From: a virus
Reading direction: 5' to 3' (one strand)
Virus record (IMG/VR): IMGVR_UViG_3300045988_139260
DNA: 50,790 bases
Positions 4,213 to 50,790 of this stretch are shown in pieces (position 1 is the first letter of the stretch; every line of letters starts with the position of its first letter). The notes under the pieces are model-generated. The model saw only the letters and a list, made by a program, of their open reading frames with translations, had not been told where the DNA came from and searched no databases. The position numbers and the translations under genes are program-made.

Positions 4213-5733
4213 ATGGGCTGGTTAGATAATGTCATAGCAACCATATCCCCGGCAACTGCGTATAAGCGTGAGACATACAGACAGGCATATACAGCACTTA
4301 AGGGATATTATGATGCCGCAGACAAGACCGGTATCAATCAAAACTGGCGTGTGAGTAATACATCGGCTGAGTTTACTGATAGGTACAGTAGAGACGATGT
4401 GAGGGCAAGAGCCAGAGATTTGGAACGTAACAGCGATGTTATGAACTCTCTGACAGGAGCTTTCAAGAGGAATGTTGTCGGAGGAGGCTACCGTATTCAG
4501 GTTCAGACTGAGGATGCGGAGTTGAACAAAAAAATAGAAAAGGCATGGAAAAAGTGGTGCAAGGCAAAGAACTGCGACGTTACCGGAACCCAGAGCCTTA
4601 ATCAGATAATCAGGATGGCCGTCGAGCGCAAGCGAATTGACGGAGGCATATTATTCGTCAAGAGATACACTAAACAGGCTTTTGTGCCATTTCAGTTGCA
4701 GATGCTTGAGGTTGATGAGCTTGATACATCAATCATGAACGCTAAAAACAGAGGCAATAAAGTTGTTGGAGGCATTGAATACAATTCATTCAACAGACCG
4801 GTCGGTTACTACATTAGGCAGTACGACATAGATGGATATTCGCCAAGAGACCCTGTGTATATCGAAGCGAAGGACGTTATCTTTTATTTTTCAAAAAAGC
4901 GCCCATCGCAGCTTAGAGAAATCTCCGATATGACGCCCACGATACCGCGTATCAGGGATGTTAATGAATTTATGACGGCCGTGTCCGTAAAGGAGCGAGT
5001 TGAAGCCTGTCTCGCAGTATTCATTAAGAAGGCTCTCCCGATGACCGGCATCGGAAGAGGCAATAACAGTCAGAGTATGGCCGACAAGATTACTTACGAG
5101 GGAAAGACTATAAGCCCGGGCATGATTAAAGAAATGAATGTCGGAGATGAGATACAGGTTGTCAATCCTTCCGGCCAGGGCGCAGACGCGACAAGCTATA
5201 CAAAACTACAGCTCAGGCAGATAGGCGCAGGCCAAGGACTGAGCTACGAGGCCACGAGCAGGGATATGGCAGAGAGCACTTATTCATCGGCCAGACAAGG
5301 CATGATTGAAGATGATATGACGTACTGGGAAGAGAAAGAATTTCTAGTTGAAATACTTGATGAGATATATGAGACCTTCCTGATATCGGCGGTGCTTCGT
5401 GGAGTTATTGATATTAAAGATTTCTGGGAGAAAAAGGATGAATACATGGAACATAATTGGATTCAATCCCCTAAACCATGGATTGACCCTCAGAAAGAAT
5501 CAAATGCAAATATGACCGCATTAAGGACCGGTCAGAAAACATACAAACAGATTGCAGCCGAGAATGGCCGTGATTGGAGAGAACAGATTGACGATATGGC
5601 CGAGGTTATCAATTACGGTAATGAAAAAGGCGTAGATATGGGAGGTGTTCTATTTGGAACGACGAACGAAAGTCCGGACAGCGTACCTGATGAGGGAGAT
5701 GACGAAAGCGGACAGCGAAAGAAAAAAGACTGA
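4213..5733 (+). CDS. Portal protein, lambda gpB family
   Basis: 506 aa directly after the gpW-like gene (order Nu1-A-W-B). N-terminal NQNWRVSNTSAEF...RARARDLERNSD motif typical of this portal family. Confidence 0.85.
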   Translation: MGWLDNVIATISPATAYKRETYRQAYTALKGYYDAADKTGINQNWRVSNTSAEFTDRYSRDDVRARARDLERNSDVMNSLTGAFKRNVVGGGYRIQVQTEDAELNKKIEKAWKKWCKAKNCDVTGTQSLNQIIRMAVERKRIDGGILFVKRYTKQAFVPFQLQMLEVDELDTSIMNAKNRGNKVVGGIEYNSFNRPVGYYIRQYDIDGYSPRDPVYIEAKDVIFYFSKKRPSQLREISDMTPTIPRIRDVNEFMTAVSVKERVEACLAVFIKKALPMTGIGRGNNSQSMADKITYEGKTISPGMIKEMNVGDEIQVVNPSGQGADATSYTKLQLRQIGAGQGLSYEATSRDMAESTYSSARQGMIEDDMTYWEEKEFLVEILDEIYETFLISAVLRGVIDIKDFWEKKDEYMEHNWIQSPKPWIDPQKESNANMTALRTGQKTYKQIAAENGRDWREQIDDMAEVINYGNEKGVDMGGVLFGTTNESPDSVPDEGDDESGQRKKKD

Positions 5734-6331
5734 AATTAACGGCAGTTTGGAAAGATACTTAACAAACTGCAATATCACAAGAATGAATGGGGAAGGAAAT
5801 GAGCGAAAGTTCGAGCTTTCCTTCTCATCAGAGGAACCATATGAAAGATGGTTCGGCATGGAAATTTTGTCTCATGCCGAAGGCGCCCTTGACTTAACTC
5901 GACTAAATTCCATTGGCGTAGTCCTATTTAATCACGATCGGGACAAGGTCGTAGGAAGAATTAACAGAGCATGGGTTGAGGATAACAGAGGCAAGGCGGA
6001 AATCGAATTTGATTCAGACGATGCAGCCGAAGTCATTTACCAAAAAGTACTGAGCGGAACACTTAAAGGTGTGTCCGTGGGATACAGGGTTGACGTGTGG
6101 GAAGAGGTATCAGCCAACAAGCAGTCAGCCGACGGTCGATTCACAGGACCATGTGATATAGCTACACGATGGACTCCGTATGAGATATCCATTGTCAGCG
6201 TACCTGCAGATCCAACGGTAGGAGTTGGACGTTCACAGCAGGATGAAACAAAGGGAGTAAGCAGCTTTTACTACAACGAAAAGCAGCTCCAAATAAATGA
6301 AAATCTTTTAACAGGAGGTAAAGTAGTATGA
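5690..6331 (+). CDS. Prohead maturation protease, HK97 (S78) family
   Basis: FELSFSSEEPYERWFG, VVLFNHDRDKVVGRI, LKGVSVGYRV match the HK97 prohead protease pattern. Start ambiguous: GTG 5645, ATG 5690, 5699 or 5783, all overlapping or just after the portal end. Confidence 0.75.
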   Translation: MREMTKADSERKKTEINGSLERYLTNCNITRMNGEGNERKFELSFSSEEPYERWFGMEILSHAEGALDLTRLNSIGVVLFNHDRDKVVGRINRAWVEDNRGKAEIEFDSDDAAEVIYQKVLSGTLKGVSVGYRVDVWEEVSANKQSADGRFTGPCDIATRWTPYEISIVSVPADPTVGVGRSQQDETKGVSSFYYNEKQLQINENLLTGGKVV

Positions 6332-7896
6332 ATCGCAAACAACTGATTCAGAGACAGCAGGAGCTACTTAATACAGCAAAAGCTGCAAAAAGAGAGCTTA
6401 CTGCAGAAGAGCAGGCTGAGTTTGACAATATCACCCGACAGCTTCAGGCGATGGATAGTTCGCAGCCAGATGAGAGTAATCCCGGAGTTCCTAATTCCGG
6501 AGCACGTTCACATGAGGGACAGCAGGCTAATGGTCCTGACGAAGAGAATGTAAGACAGCTTGCAATCAGGGCTGAGCGTGAGAGATGCGCTACAATTACA
6601 AACCTTTGCAGATCTTTCAATATCTCAGAGGACGAGACAAATTCTTTCATCAATGACGGTGTGTCCGTAGATGGAGTGCGTACAGCAATTCTTGAGGGCC
6701 TTATAGAGAATAAGCAGCCTGTCAATTCAAGAGGCGTTGCGGATGCAACAGTGACAAAGGATGAGCAGGATAAGTTCAGAAGAGCTGCAGGGGACGCGCT
6801 TGTAATGCGTTCAGGTATCAACATTGAGAATCCTGCGGAGGGCGCAAGAGACCTTATGAACATGTCCCTCAAGGACCTTGCTATTGATTCGCTTGTATCA
6901 ACTGGAGAAACAGGGCTCAACAGACGTTCTGCAGATGAAATCTTTTCGATGGTAACAAGGCAGTATTTTTCGCCAACAGCTGCATTCCCATCAATCTTAG
7001 ACAATGCCATTAATAAGGCTTACGTCGAGGGACACAAGACTGTGGCTGTCACATTTGACCAGTGGACTAAGAAGGGCACGCTTAAGGACTTCAAGACAGT
7101 TGATAACAACTACATTGCAGGCTCAGCCGGTGAGTTCTTAGAGGTACCAGAGGGCGGAGAACTTAAGCATGACACTTATGAGGATAAGAAACGTCCAACA
7201 AGAAAGCTTAAAACATACGGACGTCAGTTCACACTGACACGTCAGGCATTCATCAACGATGACATCGAACTTATTACAAAGCTTCCGGCACGCTACGCAA
7301 AGAGTGCACGTAAGACTATCAATAAGCAGTGTTATCAGATCCTCTGCAATAATCCAGCTATTTATGATGGCAAAGTTTTATTCTCAAAGGCTCATGGAAA
7401 CCTTGTTACAACAGGTACAGGTATCACACAGGCGTCAATGCAGGCTATGATCATGGCGCTCCAGAATCAGACAGACGAGTTCGGAGAGGCTATCATCGTA
7501 AGACCGGCGGCAATCATTGTACCGGCCGGAATGGCGTTTGACATTTACACACTGTTCAATAGTCCTACCATCAACACAGAGGGTAACACACAGGCAGTTA
7601 ACCCACTGTACGCATATGCGCAGCACATTAAGGTTATTGAGGACCCTACAATTAATGTACTCTGTGGTGGTTTCGGCAACGTGATGCCATGGTGGTTACT
7701 TGGTTCTAAGGATGACACAGACTTCATCGAGGTTGACTATCTGAACGGACAGGAGATACCTACAATCAGAAGAATGGAAACTCCGGGACAGCTTGGCTTT
7801 GTATGGGATATTTATCTCGATTGGGGTATCAGCGTTATGGATTGGCGTGGCGCTATCAAGAATCCGGGTGTTGCAATTAAAAGCCCACTTGATTAA
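6328..7896 (+). CDS. Major capsid protein with N-terminal scaffold-like coiled coil
   Basis: 522 aa right after the protease. N-terminal coiled coil (QRQQELLNTAKAAKRELTAEEQAEFDNITRQLQAMD) typical of HK97-type delta domains. ATGA overlap with the protease stop. Confidence 0.8.
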   Translation: MNRKQLIQRQQELLNTAKAAKRELTAEEQAEFDNITRQLQAMDSSQPDESNPGVPNSGARSHEGQQANGPDEENVRQLAIRAERERCATITNLCRSFNISEDETNSFINDGVSVDGVRTAILEGLIENKQPVNSRGVADATVTKDEQDKFRRAAGDALVMRSGINIENPAEGARDLMNMSLKDLAIDSLVSTGETGLNRRSADEIFSMVTRQYFSPTAAFPSILDNAINKAYVEGHKTVAVTFDQWTKKGTLKDFKTVDNNYIAGSAGEFLEVPEGGELKHDTYEDKKRPTRKLKTYGRQFTLTRQAFINDDIELITKLPARYAKSARKTINKQCYQILCNNPAIYDGKVLFSKAHGNLVTTGTGITQASMQAMIMALQNQTDEFGEAIIVRPAAIIVPAGMAFDIYTLFNSPTINTEGNTQAVNPLYAYAQHIKVIEDPTINVLCGGFGNVMPWWLLGSKDDTDFIEVDYLNGQEIPTIRRMETPGQLGFVWDIYLDWGISVMDWRGAIKNPGVAIKSPLD

Positions 7897-7910: not shown

Positions 7911-8237
7911 ATGAAAGCAGAATACTGGCAGAGAGGCGAAAGCCTTGATTATACAAACACAGGTGCCACAACTATTGAGGCTAATAGCATTATAGATCTC
8001 AAGACAAGAATAGCTGTGGCCGGCACAGCTATTGAGCCTAAAATGACAGGTTCGATACATGTCACAGGCATATACAGGATTAAAAAGGCGGATTCGACCG
8101 CCATCGATCTTGCAGCTCCGGTATATTACTCAGCAACCGGAATTACAGCAACAGCCGATAAGAATACTCCAGTCGGATATGCAGCAGAAGCATCAGCCGC
8201 AGGAGCCGAGTATATACTTGTCAACCTGCAGGGATAG
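7911..8237 (+). CDS. Small head protein, DUF2190/decoration-like (tentative)
   Basis: 108 aa beta-rich protein immediately after the capsid gene, with GGAGG RBS. Position and size fit head decoration/cement proteins. Confidence 0.5.
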   Translation: MKAEYWQRGESLDYTNTGATTIEANSIIDLKTRIAVAGTAIEPKMTGSIHVTGIYRIKKADSTAIDLAAPVYYSATGITATADKNTPVGYAAEASAAGAEYILVNLQG

Positions 8238-24368: not shown

Positions 24369-24556
24369 TTTATTCTATCCATAATTGGAATATAGACATA
24401 AAGCTTGGCATCCTTCCTACACCACTGACGATTGAGACATCGTTATATCCGCAATTATTTGTTTTGGTGAGTGAAAATTAACTCGATACAGGGCACGCGG
24501 TAAAGCGGTCGCACCTGCCGCGTGTAGGGGATAGAAGAAAAAATATTCGAGGTACT

Positions 24557-25705
24557 ATGAAACAGTACAAATATCTGTATCACAAAATGCTTGATGAAAA
24601 TGTTATCAGACAAGCATACAAAAAGTTAAGGAAAGGAAAAACAAAACGTAAAGAAATAATCGCTATTGATGCGAACCTGGATGAAGAAGTCGTAACAATG
24701 AGAAGGATGATTGAAAATACTAAGCCACCCGATGTAGAGGTTGAGCATCCGGAGTTGTCGTACAGGCCATGCAAAAGAACCCCAAAGTACATCTATGAGC
24801 ATGGCAAACAAAGAAGGATATACATGCCGGAGATTCATGAGCAGTGGTTACACCACATCATAGTATTGATTCTTGAACCGATAATCACGGCTACGTCATA
24901 TCCCTATTCCTGCGGTAGCTTTCCGAAGAGAGGAGCTCATTATGGCAAGAAAAGATTACTTAAATGGATAAGAGATGGAACTAACATCAAGTATTTTGGA
25001 AAAATCGACATTAGACATTTCTATGACAATATCAGAATTGACACACTGATGAGAGAGCTTGCTATCAGAATTAGTGACACATGGTTTCTGTATGTAATTA
25101 GAATATGCATGGCCGGTTTTTCAAAAGGTATTCCACTCGGATTCTATGTATCACAGTGGCTGGCCAACTATTTGCTGGAACCGCTTGACGAGTTTATCAG
25201 GAAGCTGGGCTTTGAAAAATATATGCGTTACATGGATGACATGGTATTTTTCGGCACCGCAAAGAAAAAGATTCATGCAGCAATTACTCAGATCAGAATG
25301 TTTATAGGAAGGCGCTACCGACTTAAGCTGAAACATAACTATCAGGTCTGCAGGTTTTATTATGAATCAAAGAGGCGTGCAGTTGGAAGACCGCTCGATT
25401 TTATGGGATTTCTGTTCTATCGAAATAAAACTATCATGCGAAAAAGTATCATGCTAGAAGCGGTAAGGACAGCAAAGAAGCTTAATGCGGCCAAGAGTGC
25501 CGGGAGAGGCTTTTATATCAGACACGTTAAATCGATGCTTAGTCATATGGGATGGTTTAGTTGCACCAATACTTACGATTGTTACAACATACACATTAAG
25601 CCACTTGTGAACATCACAAAACTTAAAAAGATAGTATCAAAATTAGACAGGAGGAAAAATCATTATGAAGCAGTGGAAAGAAGAACATTGCAGTACGCAG
25701 CCTGA
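24557..25705 (+). CDS. DGR reverse transcriptase
   Basis: 382 aa. YMDDMVFF (YxDD) catalytic motif, GIPLGFYVSQWLANY (LGxxxSQ motif characteristic of DGR RTs). 188 nt downstream of TR. Confidence 0.9.
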   Translation: MKQYKYLYHKMLDENVIRQAYKKLRKGKTKRKEIIAIDANLDEEVVTMRRMIENTKPPDVEVEHPELSYRPCKRTPKYIYEHGKQRRIYMPEIHEQWLHHIIVLILEPIITATSYPYSCGSFPKRGAHYGKKRLLKWIRDGTNIKYFGKIDIRHFYDNIRIDTLMRELAIRISDTWFLYVIRICMAGFSKGIPLGFYVSQWLANYLLEPLDEFIRKLGFEKYMRYMDDMVFFGTAKKKIHAAITQIRMFIGRRYRLKLKHNYQVCRFYYESKRRAVGRPLDFMGFLFYRNKTIMRKSIMLEAVRTAKKLNAAKSAGRGFYIRHVKSMLSHMGWFSCTNTYDCYNIHIKPLVNITKLKKIVSKLDRRKNHYEAVERRTLQYAA

Positions 25706-45651: not shown

Positions 45652-46053
45652 ATGATGAGCGAAAATTTTATGGAGATATGCGGAGAGCACGAGCAGCAGC
45701 AACAGATGTTTCACCTGGTTCAGATGTTATCGGAGGCGGGCTACCCATTCTATTTTAATTTTTTAGAAGACCTGGCTCCGGATCCGTTCAGGCAGGACGG
45801 CGGAGACCCTGAGACTGACATCGACTGGGATGAATATAATTTTTTTGTTGAGCTTGAGAGAGGAGCCGGAGCAGAGTACCCACTTTTAAGCGTGAGCATT
45901 GATGATGATGGACTTCTTAACCTTGTTGATATGAGGGCATCGGCTGAAAATAATCTTACAGGAGACGCTGCAGAAGATGCAGCCATTTGGCATAAGGGAA
46001 TAACCTCAGAAGAGGCAATGGATTTCATAGAAAAATTTTTTAACGAAAGATAG
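45652..46053 (+). CDS. Hypothetical acidic protein
   Basis: 133 aa. Its stop lies inside the 39-bp element copy B. Confidence 0.55.
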   Translation: MMSENFMEICGEHEQQQQMFHLVQMLSEAGYPFYFNFLEDLAPDPFRQDGGDPETDIDWDEYNFFVELERGAGAEYPLLSVSIDDDGLLNLVDMRASAENNLTGDAAEDAAIWHKGITSEEAMDFIEKFFNER

Positions 46054-46084: not shown

Positions 46085-46152
46085 AATATCAACCGTTAGG
46101 CGCGGGAATCAGACATTTTTTGTACTCCTAAATTAAAATTTTTTAACAGCAA

Positions 46153-46184
46153 AAGAGGCTGTGTCGGTTTCGACATAGCCTCTT
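46153..46184. terminator. Bidirectional rho-independent terminator
   Basis: aagaggctgtgtcg-gttt-cgacatagcctctt (14-bp stem with one G-T), with A-run upstream and T-run downstream. Confidence 0.8.
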
Positions 46185-46191
46185 TTGTTAT

Positions 46192-46416
46192 TCAGTCTAA
46201 AATTTTTTCAATCGGCACATGCAGCACTTCGGCCATGCTTCGGACCTTGCCAACAGATGCATTGTTGATGTTGACTCTGCCCTGTTCGTAGTTCTCAATG
46301 GCCCGGTAGCTGACGCCGGATTTTTTTGATAGTTCTTCCCGGGATATCCCGAGTTCCTGCCGCACCTTCGTCAGCGCGGTCAGATTTTCTTTTTTTACAT
46401 ACATGATATCTATCAT
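46192..46416 (-). CDS. XRE-family HTH regulator
   Basis: 74 aa. LTKVRQELGISREELSKKSGVSYRAIENYEQGR. True start may be the internal ATG (MYVKKE). Confidence 0.8.
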   Translation of the reverse strand: MIDIMYVKKENLTALTKVRQELGISREELSKKSGVSYRAIENYEQGRVNINNASVGKVRSMAEVLHVPIEKILD

Positions 46417-46441
46417 CCTCCCTAAATAAATTTTTTAACCA

Positions 46442-46469
46442 GCGCCGGAACCGTCCCGGCGCTTTTATT
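46442..46469 (+). terminator. Plus-oriented rho-independent terminator inside the minus-strand island
   Basis: gcgccgg-aaccgtc-ccggcgc followed by ttttatt on the + strand. On the minus strand the T-run is missing. Confidence 0.55.
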
Positions 46470-46501
46470 GTACACCTGTAAGCGTATTATTGCCAGCATT
46501 T

Positions 46502-46951
46502 TTACACACGTATCGCACCTGCTGCTGCCTGCAGGATTTTTTTATCAAAGCCGAATGAATCATATCCGGAAGCTATCACGTTGTAGTAGTAATAGCTTGG
46601 CTTTGTAGGCTTGCCCTGATTCATCAGGTAAATCATGCCGGTAACGGTTGAGCCGTCATCCATCAGGACCTCGATATCTTCTTTTCGGTAGAGGTGTGGA
46701 TAGCCTTCATATCGGTCAAGATTTTTTTCGTCGGCGGCTGAGATCGTGAAGAGCCCAACCGGGACATCTGCGCTCCCGCCCGGCAGGACGGTTGCAACAC
46801 CATTGCCGCGGGCATTTCCCCAGAATGTCAGGGAATAATTTTTTAAAACACCACTGCCGAATATTTCGGCATCCGGACAGCGGAAGCGCATCTGCTCAAG
46901 ATGTAAGTTTGAGCCATAAGCGACATAAAGTTTTTTGTTAGATTTTCTCAT
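46502..46951 (-). CDS. Gamma-glutamyl cyclotransferase (GGCT/AIG2-like)
   Basis: 149 aa from ATG 46951 (AGGAGG RBS). YVAYGSNLHLEQMRFRCP ... DRYEGYPHLY are the YGSN and catalytic Glu motifs of GGCT/AIG2. Confidence 0.8.
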   Translation of the reverse strand: MRKSNKKLYVAYGSNLHLEQMRFRCPDAEIFGSGVLKNYSLTFWGNARGNGVATVLPGGSADVPVGLFTISAADEKNLDRYEGYPHLYRKEDIEVLMDDGSTVTGMIYLMNQGKPTKPSYYYYNVIASGYDSFGFDKKILQAAAGAIRV

Positions 46952-47051
46952 AATGAGTACCTCCTTAGATATAATTTTCGATGTATTTTTTAAACCTGCC
47001 ATCATCAGCGCCGGGAGGTCAGCTCCGGCGGACGCCCGAAGGCGTTTCGGC

Positions 47052-47444
47052 TTAATATTCACACTGTGTCAGCATTGGGTAAGGATCCGGATAATTTCTT
47101 GTCGCAAGTTTTACGCAGCGTTTCAAGATATAATCTGCTTCGGATTTTGAAAGCCCGATCAGGTTTCCGTCTTCATCAGATTCGGCGGCAACGATAAAGA
47201 GATTTCCGACAAGCTGTGCCTGGCCTAAATTATTTATCGCGGAAATTTTTGGAGCCGCATTAAAAAGTCCTTCATCATCACAGATAATCGTGAATTTTTT
47301 TCGACCAATCCTGCGCTGGACTATATCAATGCAAGTGCAGTTCAGGACTTCATAATACTTTTCGAGATCATCCGCAATTTCGATTGCATCCACTTTTTTA
47401 TTTTCCACGTCAACCAGTACACCGCGTAATTTTTTGTTTGCCAT
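47052..47444 (-). CDS. DUF3846-like protein
   Basis: 130 aa from ATG 47444 (AAGGGGG RBS). LRGVLVDVENKKVDAIEI...LNCTCIDIV...IICDDEGLFN...GNLFIV..SDEDGNLIGL fits my recollection of DUF3846. Confidence 0.6.
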   Translation of the reverse strand: MANKKLRGVLVDVENKKVDAIEIADDLEKYYEVLNCTCIDIVQRRIGRKKFTIICDDEGLFNAAPKISAINNLGQAQLVGNLFIVAAESDEDGNLIGLSKSEADYILKRCVKLATRNYPDPYPMLTQCEY

Positions 47445-47461
47445 AATGAGCACCCCCTTAT

Positions 47462-47836
47462 TTAATTTTGAGCCATAATGTTGTTAAACTGATAAGAACA
47501 GCCGGCATATTTGGCATCTATCACCGCATCGTCCAACACGTTTTCAGGCGTTCCGCCGTCGTCCATTGTTACGGCCATAATATCACCGACCGTGATATCA
47601 TCAGAATCTGCATAAAATTCATAGAGCAGACCTGAAGCGGTGGAAATTGTAACAAGGTCATTCGCCGGATCAATGGCGGTTACTACACCGGCCCAAGGGT
47701 AGGTGCTGTGCCTTGCTTCATCAGCCTGAGCCTCGGCAGCTTCCGGAACTTCGGCAGCTTTGGCAGCGGCGCCGCATCCAATCGCTGAGCTGATAACAAC
47801 TGTGGCCATCATGGCCAATAACATTCTTTTCTTCAT
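47462..47836 (-). CDS. Lipoprotein, hypothetical
   Basis: 124 aa. Signal peptide with lipobox (VISSAIGC). GGAGG RBS. Confidence 0.7.
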   Translation of the reverse strand: MKKRMLLAMMATVVISSAIGCGAAAKAAEVPEAAEAQADEARHSTYPWAGVVTAIDPANDLVTISTASGLLYEFYADSDDITVGDIMAVTMDDGGTPENVLDDAVIDAKYAGCSYQFNNIMAQN

Positions 47837-47880
47837 AGTGATTACCTCCGCATGTTTTATATTCCGGATGTTTCCGGGAA

Positions 47881-47921
47881 TCCCGGCCGGGGGAATCGAA
47901 CCCCCGGCGCAACCGTTCCGG
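47881..47921 (-). other. tRNA T-arm-like minihelix (not a full tRNA)
   Basis: Minus strand: cccgg-aacggttgcg-ccgggGGTTCGATTCCcccgg-ccggg. A 7-bp stem with a canonical T-loop is enclosed by a 5-bp outer stem that abuts it like an acceptor stem. Lies between two genes. Confidence 0.45.
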
Positions 47922-47924
47922 GCT

Positions 47925-48488
47925 TTAATACCAAGATGACTGGAACTCAGGCTCGCCGTTCCATGCAGTCAATGAGATGCAGGAGCTTATTTTTACGTGC
48001 CAGCCGCCGGTGCGCTTCTCGTAAGAATCCTGAGCAACCATCTTTACAACCGGCTCGCCAATCCGATTATCGTAATCCGGAACGACGTAGCCACTCATCG
48101 AGCTATTTGTTTCAGTTTGGATATGGCCAAGTTCCACGATCTCAATTTTGCAAGAGCTGATAATTTTAGTAACCAGATAGAACTCGACATTAGTCTGCTC
48201 ATATCCCCAGGAATCAGTGAGCACGTCGCCAGCCTTGATTCCATATTTAGATTTTTTCTCAGATGCAGCAGCGACTGCGGTGCTTGCAACCTGTGCCGGG
48301 CTTGCATCCCCGGAGAGCTTCTCGGCCAATGCCAGGCGCTCGGTAGTACGTTTTGCATACCATAATTTTTTGACGCTGTGCCAGCGGAAGCCGGCGGCCT
48401 TCATTTCATTTCTTACATCCTGAGCTGGCTTGCTTTCAAAGCTAAGCTCGATTCCATTAAATTCTTTGTTGATTGCCATTGTACACAT
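47925..48488 (-). CDS. Hypothetical protein with N-terminal module seen in conjugative-element polyvalent proteins (tentative)
   Basis: 187 aa with GGAGG RBS. FNGIELSFESKPAQDVRNEMKAAGFRWHSVKKLWYAKRT resembles a short domain I recall from ICE/plasmid proteins. C-terminal half unrecognised. Confidence 0.6.
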   Translation of the reverse strand: MCTMAINKEFNGIELSFESKPAQDVRNEMKAAGFRWHSVKKLWYAKRTTERLALAEKLSGDASPAQVASTAVAAASEKKSKYGIKAGDVLTDSWGYEQTNVEFYLVTKIISSCKIEIVELGHIQTETNSSMSGYVVPDYDNRIGEPVVKMVAQDSYEKRTGGWHVKISSCISLTAWNGEPEFQSSWY

Positions 48489-48572
48489 ACTTTATACCTC
48501 CGTTTTATGCTACGCTTAAAAGCGTTTCTTGTTTGTTGAGCTCATATTAGCTCTGCCGAAAAAACTTGTCAA
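48489..48572 (-). promoter_or_regulatory. Promoter plus conserved leader, module 2 (paralogue of 49718..49812)
   Basis: Minus strand: aaaaagtgcTTGACA-17 nt-TAATAT, then gagctcaacaaacaagaaacgcttttaagcgt (hairpin acgctt/aagcgt), then GGAGG. Confidence 0.65.
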
Positions 48573-48608
48573 GCACTTTTTTCAAAATTTTTGATTTTGT
48601 TTTTCCAA

Positions 48609-48663
48609 GCCGCCCTGCTGGGGATCGAACCCGGATATTATGCGGCGCCAGCCGCCGGGGCGG
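48609..48663 (-). other. tRNA-like element with GGGTTCGATCCC T-loop motif (not a full tRNA)
   Basis: Minus strand: ccgccc-cg-gcggc tggc gccgc-ataatatcc-GGGTTCGATCCC-cagca-gggcgg. The outer 6-bp stem encloses two hairpins. Confidence 0.35.
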
Positions 48664-48670
48664 TACCCGG

Positions 48671-49717
48671 TTAATTATTAACCGGATCTAAGAAATATTT
48701 ATCCTTATTCTGACCATGACGCCAAGCGGCGTCGCCGGTCAGATTCTTAATCATATGCGCATGAGGATTTTTGAAGGCGTCGCCAATCCAGCCCATACCA
48801 ATAAGCCATGTGCGCATAGCAAATTTTTCATTGCCAGCCTGCATTATCGGATTTTTGGTTGTGGCTATGCGGGAGCTAAATAAAGCCTTGGCGTTCATGC
48901 TCAGGACTAAGAGCACAAAACTGCGGATCTTGCCGGCATGCAATGTTGCATCAAAGGCACGGATCTCGATCGTGTTGCAACCCTGGCCACGAGTAGAAAA
49001 GTAGCGGTGCAGGTTCAGCAGATGATATCTGCTGCCGTCGTAATGATTAAGTCGGCAGCTTTCAGGACGGCCGTCGCTGAGCTCCTCATACCACACACGC
49101 TCGATGTCCTCTATCGTCTTGCACTTTTGCACGCGGTTAATGAACTGTGTCGGGGTTCCGTGATCGTAGCCGGTACGGCGGTTATTGATCGGGACACACC
49201 ATGCACAGACACGGCTGTCGGCCACACCTAAGGCCTTGTATAACATCTCTTCTTGAGCGTATACAAGGTTTATGAAGTTCTTTAGTGTCTGAGCTGTATG
49301 CTCACGACTTCCTACATGTACATGTATACCGCAGCCATAGCGGGCACCGGTACGAGCCCCGCCCTGCTTTAGAAGCCTAACCAGTTGCTGCAGTGTGTCC
49401 ATGTCTTCAAGGGTTAAAGGCGGGGTGTTGAGCTCGCATGAGTAGTCGCCACGGCTTGCTGCTGTACGGCCGTTGGAGTCAACCGCATTGATCGAGCAAT
49501 CAGAAACGAACTGCCATACACGGCCGCCGACAAATTCAGTAACGGTGTACTTGTGATAAGCCCCGCCGACGTATTGAACAGAGCCGCCAACTAGGCTGGC
49601 GCAGAGGGCTGCTGCCTTTTCCCTTGTGATTCCGGTCATCTCAATCTCGACGCCGTAAGTCATGTTATTGATCATTCCGCGAAGATGCTCGCGCTTTTCA
49701 GTATTTGTCATTGCCAT
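48671..49717 (-). CDS. Amidoligase-family enzyme (GS-like COOH-NH2 ligase, Amidoligase_2-type)
   Basis: 348 aa with AGGAGG RBS. YGVEIEMTGITREKAA, ELNTPPL, GIHVHVG, NTIEIRAFDATLH fit the amidoligase pattern as I recall it. Confidence 0.75.
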   Translation of the reverse strand: MAMTNTEKREHLRGMINNMTYGVEIEMTGITREKAAALCASLVGGSVQYVGGAYHKYTVTEFVGGRVWQFVSDCSINAVDSNGRTAASRGDYSCELNTPPLTLEDMDTLQQLVRLLKQGGARTGARYGCGIHVHVGSREHTAQTLKNFINLVYAQEEMLYKALGVADSRVCAWCVPINNRRTGYDHGTPTQFINRVQKCKTIEDIERVWYEELSDGRPESCRLNHYDGSRYHLLNLHRYFSTRGQGCNTIEIRAFDATLHAGKIRSFVLLVLSMNAKALFSSRIATTKNPIMQAGNEKFAMRTWLIGMGWIGDAFKNPHAHMIKNLTGDAAWRHGQNKDKYFLDPVNN

Positions 49718-49812
49718 TTTGTGTTCCTCCTATGTTTCAATGTTTGTTGATACGTTTACAAACGTTTCTTGCTTGCAAGCTAACGATAGCTCTGCAAGTT
49801 GGGCTGTGTCAA
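49718..49812 (-). promoter_or_regulatory. Promoter plus conserved leader, module 1 (paralogue of 48489..48572)
   Basis: Minus strand: aaaaagtgcTTGACA-18 nt-TATCGT, then tagcttgcaagcaagaaacgtttgtaaacgt (hairpin acgttt/aaacgt), then AGGAGG. Confidence 0.6.
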
Positions 49813-49830: not shown

Positions 49831-50691
49831 TTTTCCCGCTGTGTCCGGAAGCTTGATTTTACAAGGGTTTCAGGCTTTAAAAAATTTGTCTTAAACGTTT
49901 TGAATGCCTGAGCTATCAGAGCCGCCGCGGCCGTGATCCACGCCGCGCACGCGCCCGGAGGGCTATATATACGCGCGCCTGTCTGCCTGATGGAAGATAT
50001 ACGACAGAACTACAAGGCAGGCTATAGCCGCAGTCCTTAGATGCGCACCCGCGCGCCTGTGGCTTACACATGCACAGGACCAGGAGAAGAGAAACACACG
50101 GACACGCGCACGCGCACCAATGGAAGAGACGCTGTAGCAGGGCGGCAGGGTATATACAGGAGCGTGGGTGTGTACAATATGCGCCCGCGAATATATAAAG
50201 GCGCTTTAGGGGCTTTAATCTGCGCCTATCACGTGTTCGCGCATGCGCGCCAGATGGAAGATATACACTAAGGCAGCAGGACAGCCGGACTATAGAGCCA
50301 CAGTCAGCAGGGTGGCAGGGCACGCCGGGGCTACGTAGCGGCATAGCGGGGCGGCAGGCTATAGAGCCATAAGGCAGCAGGGCACCTGTGTCCGGCGCAT
50401 ATCAAGGCTATCGGATCCGGCTTGGATGCAGTCGGCTATATACAGCAGGGCAGCAGGGCACCTGTGTCCGACACTAAGAGAGAGCCAGCAAGGCGGCTGT
50501 GTCCGGCACTAAGACAAGCAGCAGAGCAGGCAGGGCGGAGCGGCAGACCTGTGTCCGGTATACTAAGAGGCATTAAAGCAGGGCGGGACACCTGCGTCCG
50601 ATACATGGTGGCAGGTAGCAAGGCGCATAGTCCATAGAAGCAAGAGGCACGGTTTGAGTGATCGCTGTGTCCATAGAAGAAACAGGGGTCA
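49831..50691. repeat. G+C-rich non-coding region with dispersed direct repeats (CTGTGTCCGR boxes and others)
   Basis: No credible ORF. Boxes at 49839, 50386, 50462, 50497, 50549, 50592 and 50665, all in the same orientation. gatggaagatatac occurs twice, ggctatag(a)gcc three times. Many alternating CG tracts. Confidence 0.85.
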
Positions 50692-50790
50692 AAATCGACC
50701 CCTTCAGAGGCCCCAAGGTACTACTGTGGACGCTCAGAATGCGGGGCGGGGAAAGGCGCATTATTTAAGCGGAAATGATGCAAAAAAAAT
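50692..50790. repeat. Terminal overlap copy 2 (identical to 1..99)
   Basis: See copy 1. Confidence 0.95.

Follow-up and report, generated by a model that had tools for sequence, protein, structure and literature searches.

A two-gene ligase-cyclotransferase core with clade-specific cargo, a type II hammerhead and tRNA-like elements in a phage accessory operon

The IMG/VR virus record IMGVR_UViG_3300045988_139260, a stretch of 50,790 nucleotides (nt) that is called the window here and in whose positions our coordinates are given, carries an accessory operon in which small genes separate an amidoligase from a GGCT/AIG2-type cyclotransferase. Comparison with related loci shows that the conserved unit is a two-gene core, ligase and GGCT, and not six genes, and that this core is found across hundreds of phages and prophages. 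In a clade of Lachnospiraceae phages alone (the window and about 25 loci), the core has become a frame into which a changeable set of small cargo genes is inserted, with an XRE-family regulator added at the end. The gaps between the inserted genes hold tRNA-like elements (TLEs) and a type II hammerhead ribozyme, each beginning on the upstream gene's stop codon or a few bases further on.

Layout of the operon

The six co-oriented minus-strand open reading frames (ORFs) listed in a preliminary description of this DNA are all present where it placed them. The region is one accessory operon that runs from a promoter, P1 (49812), to a terminator-like hairpin near 46150. It is divergent from the late and packaging genes and lies downstream of a DUF1492-type regulator, in agreement with the earlier placement of the island between a late regulator and the late genes. 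An island of the same architecture, at the same site and in the same divergent orientation, was found in a Clostridiaceae prophage and several 50-kb contigs, where the DUF1492 regulator stands on one side and the ParB-methyltransferase/terminase genes on the other. The parts of the operon, in the direction of transcription, are listed below.

49783-49812, minus strand: P1, a putative sigma-70-type promoter, TTGACA-18-TATCGT, with an A/T tract before it (consensus scan)
48671-49717, minus strand: amidoligase, 348 amino acids (aa), a predicted carboxylate-amine ligase of probable glutamine synthetase (GS)/glutamate-cysteine ligase fold (Amidoligase_2); first core gene (profiles)
48610-48663, minus strand: TLE-A, a probable tRNA-like element and weaker member, with T-loop GGTTCGATCC and a 6-bp acceptor-like stem
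48544-48572, minus strand: P2, an internal promoter-like site, TTGACA-17-TAATAT, duplicate of the P1 module (consensus scan)
47925-48488, minus strand: gene for a 187-aa protein (ORF; narrow family)
47877-47926, minus strand: TLE-B, a tRNA-like minihelix starting on the stop codon of the 187-aa gene (covariance model, covariation)
47862-47880, minus strand: small hairpin UUCCCGG-AAACAU-CCGGAA directly 3' of TLE-B, then an A-rich run and the Shine-Dalgarno (SD) sequence of the lipoprotein gene (reading and fold)
47462-47836, minus strand: lipoprotein, 124 aa, variable cargo (signal peptide and lipobox)
47052-47453, minus strand: ORF of a DUF3846 protein, 130-133 aa, likely true ATG at 47444, variable cargo (PF12957)
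46990-47052, minus strand: type II hammerhead ribozyme (Rfam RF02276)
46502-46951, minus strand: GGCT/AIG2 cyclotransferase, 149 aa, ATG after AAGGAGG; second core gene (profiles)
46441-46463, minus strand: GC-rich hairpin between GGCT and XRE, then an A-rich run and SD (sequence reading)
46192-46416, minus strand: XRE-family helix-turn-helix protein closing the operon, likely start at 46404 (HTH_3)
46151-46185, minus strand: intrinsic-terminator-like hairpin and U run after XRE, AAAGAGGCU...AGCCUCUUUU (direct reading; not listed by a simple scan)

The ligase-GGCT pair

The amidoligase aligns with positions 2-243 of the 245 in profile PF12224 (E 2.5e-47, 162.3 bits against a cut-off of 22) and with phrog_2443 (E 1.7e-66), and 1462 homologues were collected. 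Residues E24, E26, H132, H134, E251, and R253 are invariant in 16 sequences reaching down to 51% identity; these ExE, HxH, and ExR residues are the ones expected, on the beta strands of a GS-like active site, to be involved in metal and ATP binding. The top PDB folds for an AlphaFold2 model of the protein (pLDDT 87) were all glutamine synthetases or GshA, at weak Foldseek scores (E 1e-3 to 1e-2, TM-score 0.28-0.43), and a PDB sequence search with the amidoligase profile found no meaningful relative. The GGCT protein matches PF06094 (E 3e-12, 47.6 bits against 22.8), PF13772 (E 1e-8, 35.9 against 27), and phrog_2520 (E 7e-38), a family that PHROGs files under moron, auxiliary metabolic gene and host takeover. 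It aligns to human GGCT (2pn7, E 6e-9) with YGSNL on YGSNL and the Glu of DRYEG on the catalytic E98. The motifs quoted in the preliminary description (GVEIEM, GIHVHVG, and TIEIRAF; YGSN and DRYEGYP) are present in the translations and fall on invariant columns, and by these sequence features both enzymes look catalytically competent. The assignments of that description to Amidoligase_2, GGCT/AIG2, DUF3846, and XRE held up in Pfam for all four proteins and in PHROGs for both enzymes, the hidden Markov models placing neither the 348-aa nor the 149-aa protein in an unrelated family.

Loci encoding a relative of the ligase, 241 in all and labelled L001 and so on, were drawn from viral, genome, and metagenome collections; the 184 in which the sequence extends 3 kb or more past the downstream end of the ligase gene were taken as informative. 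GGCT lies downstream on the same strand in 178 of these 184 and within 300 nt, hence directly adjacent, in 140 (first set, 77/81). This linkage is far beyond chance, as the preliminary description had supposed, and it identifies the pair as a two-gene core, so that the "six-gene island" of that description gives way to a core with clade-specific insertions. Compared with other phage pairs of PF12224/phrog_2443 and PF06094/phrog_2520, the window has the same families in the same order and on the same strand, with conserved catalytic residues and similar hosts, the others being phages and prophages of Clostridia and other anaerobes. It differs in that 1.7 kb, occupied by three cargo genes and by RNA elements, separates the two genes, in being inverted relative to its neighbors, and in its XRE end.

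Carriers of the pair include annotated gut phages belonging to Heliusvirales, a proposed order, as well as Terrisporobacter phage TPDSL_ph1; in the Heliusvirales-type and Terrisporobacter phages, the pair is co-oriented with adjoining methyltransferase and small-terminase genes. It was also found in metagenome-assembled genomes (MAGs) labelled Spirochaetes and Tenericutes/Mycoplasma (labels as deposited, not verified). The preliminary description had spoken of phages and plasmids, but the amidoligase subfamily is nearly absent from the latter: a single match in 72,556 plasmid records gives it no link to plasmids or to integrative and conjugative elements. At L243 (TPDSL_ph1; 4923-7531) and in Clostridium clostridioforme LM41 phi13alpha/epsilon, two amidoligase-annotated genes (~240 aa and ~315 aa) stand upstream of one GGCT gene, which suggests a two-ligase variant of the module. 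Amidoligase and GGCT genes appear in the prophage tables for C. clostridioforme LM41 phi13alpha/epsilon (PMC11318856).

The protein core is thus a member of a module already predicted and annotated in PHROGs. Iyer, Abhiman, Burroughs, and Aravind are said to have predicted amidoligase and GGCT/AIG2 pairs by comparative genomics in 2009, in Mol Biosyst. The statement in the preliminary description that no phage member had been characterized agrees with our own search, in which the accessible literature yielded no biochemical characterization of any phage member of the pair.

Clade-specific cargo between the enzymes

Genes between the ligase and GGCT, and a terminal XRE gene, occur only where the ligase is more than about 48% identical to that of the window. 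Maps of 20 clade islands show a fixed frame, ligase ... GGCT-XRE, with the 187-aa gene in second place in most and XRE at the island end in 16 of the 20 (the window XRE protein matches HTH_3 at E 1.1e-10). Between the enzymes lie two to nine small ORFs, which vary from phage to phage and fall into 46 groups, mostly confined to one or two loci each. The four cargo and regulator genes of the window are missing from more than 85% of the loci that carry the pair.

The DUF3846 protein matches PF12957 (E 2.3e-13, 50.6 bits against 27.5). The lipoprotein, which has no Pfam or PHROG family match, carries MKKRMLLAMMATVVISSAIGC; its signal peptide and lipobox, together with the canonical LAGC/AAGC lipoboxes of homologues in 11 clade loci, uphold the earlier call. 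The 187-aa protein belongs to a family of some 206 proteins of constant length, near 185 aa, that lack any Pfam domain and share an invariant Cys2. Its layout is a small N-terminal alpha/beta module, an alanine/proline-rich linker, and a beta-rich C-terminal domain, and a Foldseek search of its model against the PDB gave no significant structural neighbor. The N-terminal module singled out in the preliminary description (FNGIELSF...GFRWH...WYAK) is real as sequence, but its sole family match, DUF5710, stays below the cut-off (17.6 against 26.5 bits). An invariant Met-Cys-Thr start was observed in 20 of 20 aligned members of the 187-aa family, and the gene always stands just downstream of the ligase gene. 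It is conceivable that an exposed N-terminal Cys of this protein serves as a substrate of the ligase.

The "anti-restriction-type neighbors" of the preliminary description were found in part. Cargo in sister islands includes LPD11, DUF1419, and an ArdC-N-like protein (ArdcN, 22.3 bits against a cut-off of 22.6), but none of the six window proteins matches an anti-restriction family of ArdA/ArdC type in Pfam or PHROGs. Polyvalent-protein domains (LPD families, DUF3846) and the leading-region anti-defense islands of conjugative plasmids are known settings for such genes. The clade islands resemble these arrays in having co-oriented, small, fast-turnover genes, some of them LPD11, DUF3846, DUF1419, or ArdC-like; they differ in that the genes are free-standing within a phage enzyme operon, the amidoligase subfamily of which is essentially absent from plasmids.

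How quickly cargo can change is illustrated by the comparison with L001, in which flanks 95-96% identical to those of the window enclose a replaced stretch (window 47405-46937, L001 9312-9669). The swapped stretch holds the body of the DUF3846 gene, the ribozyme, and the GGCT ribosome-binding site, and L001 carries in its place a 50%-identical DUF3846 allele without a hammerhead. This cassette swap makes the ribozyme polymorphic among close relatives.

Promoters and a hammerhead ribozyme in the gaps

In the preliminary description, the gaps of the island were read as promoter or spacer DNA, and the structured RNA elements inside them, the hammerhead and the TLEs, were missed. The two TTGACA-type sites that it reported were found again, each scoring 10/12 against the consensus; matches of this type are not significant by themselves (13 found against 6.4 +/- 2.2 expected). 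The upstream site, P1, is conserved: the pattern A/T tract - TTGAC(A/T) - 17/18 nt ending in CAGAG(C/T) - TAnnGT is kept in most clade loci, about 80-110 nt upstream of the amidoligase start. The P2 region (window 48502-48587, minus strand) and the P1 region of L001 (6891-6976) share 76% identity, and the P2 module includes a 5' hairpin, AACGCTT..AAGCGT. Among the clade loci examined, just five have P2, namely the window, L001, L003, L082, and L083; their gap is 70 nt longer. This gap, which separates the ligase gene from that of the 187-aa protein, is an exception among gaps that are mostly too short for a promoter.

The gap between the DUF3846 and GGCT genes holds what is by sequence and predicted fold a bona fide type II hammerhead. 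It reaches 39.8 bits against RF02276, a small margin over the gathering threshold of 37 (E 1e-5 within a 5-kb region), and its first base, on the operon strand, is the final A of the TAA that ends the DUF3846 gene. Cleavage is predicted after C47031 (GUC, 47033-47031), a position that precedes the GGCT ribosome-binding site by about 65 nt. Homologous type II hammerheads, counted in seven further clade loci, were also found in slots of the same kind in the islands of L005/L162, L009, L086, L167, L244/L245, and L247 (two), at 34.6-55 bits, with a weak one in L006 (28.3 bits). The catalytic core (CUGAUGA, GAAA, GUC) is identical in five of six aligned sequences, the weak L006 copy reading CCGAUGA. 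Both stem I and stem III are closed, and stem II is open; stem III covaries (GCC/GGC, GCUCC/GGAGC, GGCCC/GGGCC), and the pseudoknot of loop I with the 3' tail is ACCU/AGGU in the window and L005 and GCCU/AGGC in L009, L086, and L167. Matches to a hammerhead descriptor, all of them on the operon strand, came from 8 of the 25 clade loci and from 0 of 222 two-gene loci. The first base of every mapped hammerhead is also the final base of the stop codon upstream; the flanking genes vary by locus.

A pseudoknot between loop I and the 3' tail and a short stem II are the hallmarks of type II (PMC3088659). Perreault et al. (2011) reported hammerheads that flank genes in prophages, including one of Clostridium scindens, and proposed that these ribozymes cut long phage transcripts into gene-length mRNAs (PMC3088659). 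The hammerheads described here share with those the type II topology, a stem II of 2-3 bp, the pseudoknot, slots among small genes in Lachnospiraceae-type prophages, and non-constant flanks. They differ in being present at one per island (two in L247), in being mixed with TLEs, and in starting exactly on the stop codon.

tRNA-like elements in the clade

The T-loop sequence GGTTCGATYC is present on the operon strand in the gaps that follow the amidoligase and 187-aa genes, and all clade loci have one to four such sites within the island. About 30 distinct copies share an architecture of a 4-7 bp acceptor-like stem, an 8-23 nt linker with a conserved GG, often within (A)ACGGUU, a 5-7 bp T stem with T-loop UUCGAUU, and a 3' acceptor strand. 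The two stems have many different sequences and together make 11-13 bp, compared with 12 bp in a tRNA's acceptor/T stack. Each element spans 40-55 nt, without an anticodon arm and with no encoded CCA. The elements start 0-15 nt after the upstream stop codon and are followed by a small hairpin, an A-rich run, and a strong SD; the spacing from TLE to SD, about 30-40 nt, is in most gaps too short to accommodate a promoter. The hairpins after the TLEs are more stable than shuffled sequences (-6.4 versus -1.6 kcal/mol, n = 31).

TLE-B is a strong member, with acceptor strands CCCGG/CCGGG, linker AACGGUUGCG, a 7-bp T stem, and the loop UUCGAUU; a minimum free energy (MFE) fold gives the same structure. 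TLE-A has an extra hairpin in the linker and a C.A mismatch in the T stem, features with which its MFE fold agrees; it shows a weak mascRNA-like match (E 0.02), and orthologous elements follow the amidoligase stop codon in clade loci. No family in Rfam 15 reaches threshold on any TLE, and one element weakly matches the tRNA-like domain of tmRNA. That the TLEs are true tRNAs was rejected: ARAGORN found none in the window, and the Rfam tRNA model found none in the window or the clade loci.

A covariance model (CM R2), seeded on eight copies and rebuilt once, scores TLE-B at 69.5 bits (E 2.4e-13). In clade DNA (279 kb, both strands), all 49 matches at E<=1 are on the operon strand, and all 40 at E<=0.013 lie between the ligase stop and the GGCT start; two-gene loci (1.69 Mb) gave 0 and 1 weak matches in two batches. 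In the clade alignment, 95.1% of cells are paired, versus 65.2% after shuffling and 33-58% when the partners are slid. Eleven of the 13 pairs change on both sides, and the invariant two are the equivalents of G52-C62 and G53-C61.

tRNA-like elements beyond the island

The viral collection was scanned with the pattern ACGGTT-N6-11-GGTTCGAWTCC, which itself contains the T-loop, and gave at least 120 loci. The counts in this paragraph are those among the matches listed. Outside ARAGORN tRNAs lie 117 of 143 matches, and the model built from the clade recovers at least 92 elements at E<=0.05, which share the architecture seen in the clade. In phages of 34-59% GC, TLEs stand between small ORFs in arrays of as many as nine on one strand, with 74 of 127 elements starting -6 to 15 nt from a same-strand stop codon. 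An independent set comprised 84 distinct sequences, none of them used in model building. Here 95.2% of cells pair, against 57.0% in shuffled sequences; both partners vary in 12 of the 13 pairs, with a covariation score of 0.703 versus 0.125. The tRNA-like elements are thus a covarying and widespread class, and in the islands they occupy slots equivalent to those of the hammerheads.

Arrays of three to nine TLEs were found in unrelated contigs (L351, L272, L310, L331, L282, L309, L336, L362, L252, and L328). The array in L272 holds a full-length ArdC-like anti-restriction gene (phrog_7245, E 1e-72), and most of the genes in TLE arrays are without known function. The seemingly largest array, L345, was excluded as a genuine tRNA cluster. 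In the same contig, with its cluster of tRNAs and tRNA-like sequences, a HEARO RNA was observed at 7959-8172 on the minus strand (135 bits).

We found no description of tRNA-like minihelices that punctuate phage operons, alone or with ribozymes, in the full text within our reach, most subscription journals lying outside it. It is possible, though less likely than not, that TLEs are a widespread, uncatalogued class of phage RNA that recruits host RNase P, RNase Z, and perhaps the CCA-adding enzyme to divide operon transcripts into individual, end-protected mRNAs, as a phage equivalent of the tRNA punctuation of mitochondria, and that these elements, functionally interchangeable with hammerheads, mark fast-evolving arrays of accessory and counter-defense genes.

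A model for transcript processing and enzyme chemistry

On balance, we think it probable that the locus is an operon with a two-gene core and inserted cargo, in which the RNAs in the gaps cut the transcript and the ligase is followed by the cyclotransferase in a common chemistry. In this model, one long transcript would be cut at the TLEs and the hammerhead into separate messages. The hammerhead would cleave itself after C47031, so that the DUF3846 message would carry the stem III hairpin and a 2',3'-cyclic phosphate at its 3' end, and the GGCT-XRE message would have a 5'-OH and then the hairpin of stem I at its beginning. As mimics of the elbow and the acceptor/T-arm half of a tRNA, which is the half recognized by RNase P, RNase Z, and the CCA-adding enzyme, the TLEs would be cut by host RNase Z at the 3' side, by RNase P at the 5' side, or by both. 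RNase P would act before the first TLE base, and RNase Z after the discriminator base, because CCA is not encoded. The downstream message would then begin with the small hairpin, the A-rich tract, and the strong SD, features that stabilize mRNAs in Firmicutes. Processing of this kind could make the stability and dosage of one cassette independent of those of the others, much like tRNA punctuation in mitochondria. That cleavage is what the two kinds of element have in common is argued mainly from the interchangeable placement of TLE and ribozyme.

Precedents for such elements come from several systems. MALAT1 mascRNA and the TMERs of MHV68, which are tRNA-like and hairpin units, are tRNA-like processing elements, and operon processing at tRNAs is well known in organelles and has been copied in synthetic biology, in tRNA-guide RNA arrays and ribozyme insulators. 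In plant mitochondria, t-elements act as tRNA-like processing signals (Forner et al. 2007, PMC1920247). Like t-elements, mascRNA, and mitochondrial punctuation, the TLEs are acceptor/T-arm mimics between or at the end of coding regions of a polycistronic RNA, and, as in the MHV68 TMERs, a hairpin directly follows the tRNA-like part. Unlike t-elements and mascRNA, they stand in phage operons, as minimal minihelices of 40-55 nt in which a linker replaces the D and anticodon arms, and in arrays of up to nine per locus.

For the enzymes, the strict adjacency of the pair is most economically read as two consecutive steps on one bond. The ligase would make a gamma-glutamyl-type amide on an amine at the cost of ATP, and GGCT would resolve that amide to 5-oxoproline and the free amine, as a transient tag or a two-step pathway. 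The product could be a reversible tag or a transient protecting group, or the reactions could act as a glutamate/ATP drain. The gamma-glutamyl cycle likewise pairs a carboxylate-amine ligase, of GshA/GS type, with a cyclotransferase that releases 5-oxoproline; in contrast to GshA and GS, the window ligase is remotely GS-like (Foldseek E ~1e-3, TM-score 0.3-0.43) and has no sequence-detectable PDB relative. Gamma-glutamyl protecting-group chemistry is known from butirosin BtrJ/BtrG, of which BtrJ is an ATP-grasp enzyme and not GS-like. The operon may serve host takeover, counter-defense, or lysogenic conversion.

Several observations weigh against this model. The processing is read from shape and position; the U(-1) preference of RNase P is not seen at TLEs, and an RNase P cut 0-10 nt past the stop codon would leave the upstream message unprotected. 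The presence of P2 in one gap means that not all genes need processing for their expression. TLE-A is a weak member, seen by the CM as nothing more than a local T-arm match (11.9 bits), and is therefore graded as probable. Folding energies of the RNA elements in the window are no better than those of shuffled sequences (z -0.15 to -1.2), so that the case rests on covariation and position, and the CM-derived alignments behind the paired fractions given above lean toward the modelled pairs. With regard to the chemistry, the two enzymes would run a futile cycle if one made and the other broke the same bond.

Alternative explanations

The reading of the preliminary description, a phage-delivered, six-gene writer/eraser with anti-restriction-type partners, its own promoters and functionless gaps, serving anti-defense or takeover, seems to us unlikely as a whole. 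The enzyme families and their tight pairing are confirmed, P1 is conserved and P2 present, and anti-restriction-type genes do occur both in sister islands (LPD11, DUF1419, ArdC-N-like) and, as a full ArdC-like gene, in an unrelated TLE array. The absence of the cargo and regulator genes from more than 85% of the pair loci, however, argues against their being partners of the two enzymes; none of the window proteins falls into a named anti-restriction family; the gaps, for the most part, lack the length for a promoter and are taken up by RNA structures that covary; and adjacency with co-transcription suits consecutive steps better than antagonists. Equally unlikely in our estimate is a prophage moron for lysogenic conversion or superinfection exclusion, a sigma-70 operon expressed in the lysogen whose lipoprotein blocks incoming phages, whose enzyme pair reshapes glutamate/5-oxoproline or gamma-glutamyl metabolism, and whose XRE protein autoregulates. 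The net reaction would be Glu + ATP -> 5-oxoproline, and the RNA elements would still be processing sites. An orientation opposite to the flanking lytic genes, a consensus promoter and terminator of its own, a lipoprotein among the cargo, the PHROGs category of the GGCT family, and a temperate phage with a serine integrase all suit a moron. The pair in MAGs labelled Tenericutes/Mycoplasma would argue for a cytoplasmic rather than a cell-wall target, but these labels are unverified, and in the Heliusvirales-type and Terrisporobacter phages, the co-orientation of the pair with methyltransferase and terminase genes looks like a lytic unit.

Other functions can be envisaged for the TLEs themselves. 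As mimics of the half of the tRNA that many enzymes measure (the 12-bp stack, T-loop, and elbow GG), situated in accessory-gene arrays of which one has an anti-restriction gene, they could be RNA decoys or handles for tRNA-binding host factors such as tRNA-targeting defense toxins, modification enzymes, the CCA-adding enzyme, or EF-Tu. Alternatively, lying as they do immediately behind stop codons, they could, if cleavage were confined to the 3' side, form 3' caps that protect the upstream message or boost its translation in the manner of the tRNA-like structures of plant viruses. We consider both the decoys and the caps improbable: an element lacking the anticodon arm cannot bait anticodon nucleases, the fact that a self-cleaving ribozyme can take their slot speaks for cleavage, and a conserved hairpin and SD directly downstream suit the formation of a 5' end. 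It is very improbable that the TLEs are DNA recombination sites for the gain and loss of cassettes, either attC-like or 3' tRNA remnants of integration. One element after each of many small, promoterless, co-oriented ORFs does recall attC, and both the highly variable cargo between elements and the cassette swap between near-identical phages would fit, but the conserved part is a non-palindromic T-loop in a hairpin loop without attC R/L boxes, and a 5' acceptor strand with compensatory changes is unexpected for tRNA 3' fragments. The sole recombinase found is the large serine integrase, 15 kb away, with no IntI; the borders of the L001 swap fall inside the DUF3846 and GGCT coding starts and not at a TLE, and many neighboring cargo genes have no element between them. 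Identity as integron attC sites or tRNA-fragment att sites was accordingly rejected, given the lack of IntI and of R''/L''-L'/R' boxes and the covariation of paired strands.

The ligase-cyclotransferase pair is among the most consistently linked enzyme pairs without an assigned function in phages of anaerobes, and the pair, rather than the six-gene island, is the unit to study, as a minimal two-gene system for biochemistry. What the present analysis adds is the RNA layer, the hammerhead and the TLE class, which changes how the gaps and the expression of the island are read. If TLEs are processing sites, phages use the tRNA-maturation enzymes of the host to punctuate their mRNAs; if true, this would also explain the clustering of self-cleaving ribozymes in prophages, a puzzle since 2011. 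TLEs are easily found with a covariance model, seem to flag arrays of small accessory genes that are quickly exchanged, and could become a search handle for counter-defense and host-takeover genes.

Phage and genome setting

The window is a complete temperate phage and belongs to the phages of gut Lachnospiraceae. The nearest genomic amidoligases are those of Hominiventricola (68% identity), Blautia, and Lachnospiraceae MAGs, and a Megablast search of the island against 50,697 phage records gave no match. The phage encodes a ParB-methyltransferase, a lambda GpA-type terminase, a lambda-family portal, an endolysin, a large serine integrase, a DUF927 primase, and the DUF1492-type regulator. Between this regulator and the island end lies an acidic ORF of 133 aa (45652-46053, plus strand) with no Pfam or PHROG match.

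A terminal direct repeat of 98 nt (1-98 = 50693-50790) marks the contig as a circularly closed assembly (or one with a short direct terminal repeat). Its "end" is therefore arbitrary, and the ends of the window are no evidence for cos ends; the proposal that the island lies at a cos end and is injected first was set aside, since no end can be read from a circularly closed contig. In favor of a cos site nearby, the terminase is of lambda GpA type and a repeat-rich, non-coding stretch of 0.8 kb adjoins the island. This GC-rich stretch, at 49900-50690 between the island promoter and the ParB-methyltransferase/terminase genes, contains direct repeats of ACCTGTGTCCGG (five to six times), GCAGGGC... 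(four times), and GGCAGGCTATAG (three times), and may hold terminase-binding (cos) sites or sites for replication or partition.

A reverse transcriptase gene stands next to an RT-4 RNA elsewhere in the phage genome. The RNA (Rfam RF03025, 116 bits; 24418-24536, plus strand) lies directly upstream of the gene, which encodes a 382-aa protein of the RVT_1 family (24557-25705, plus strand), and the two probably constitute a diversity-generating retroelement beside the tail-fiber region.

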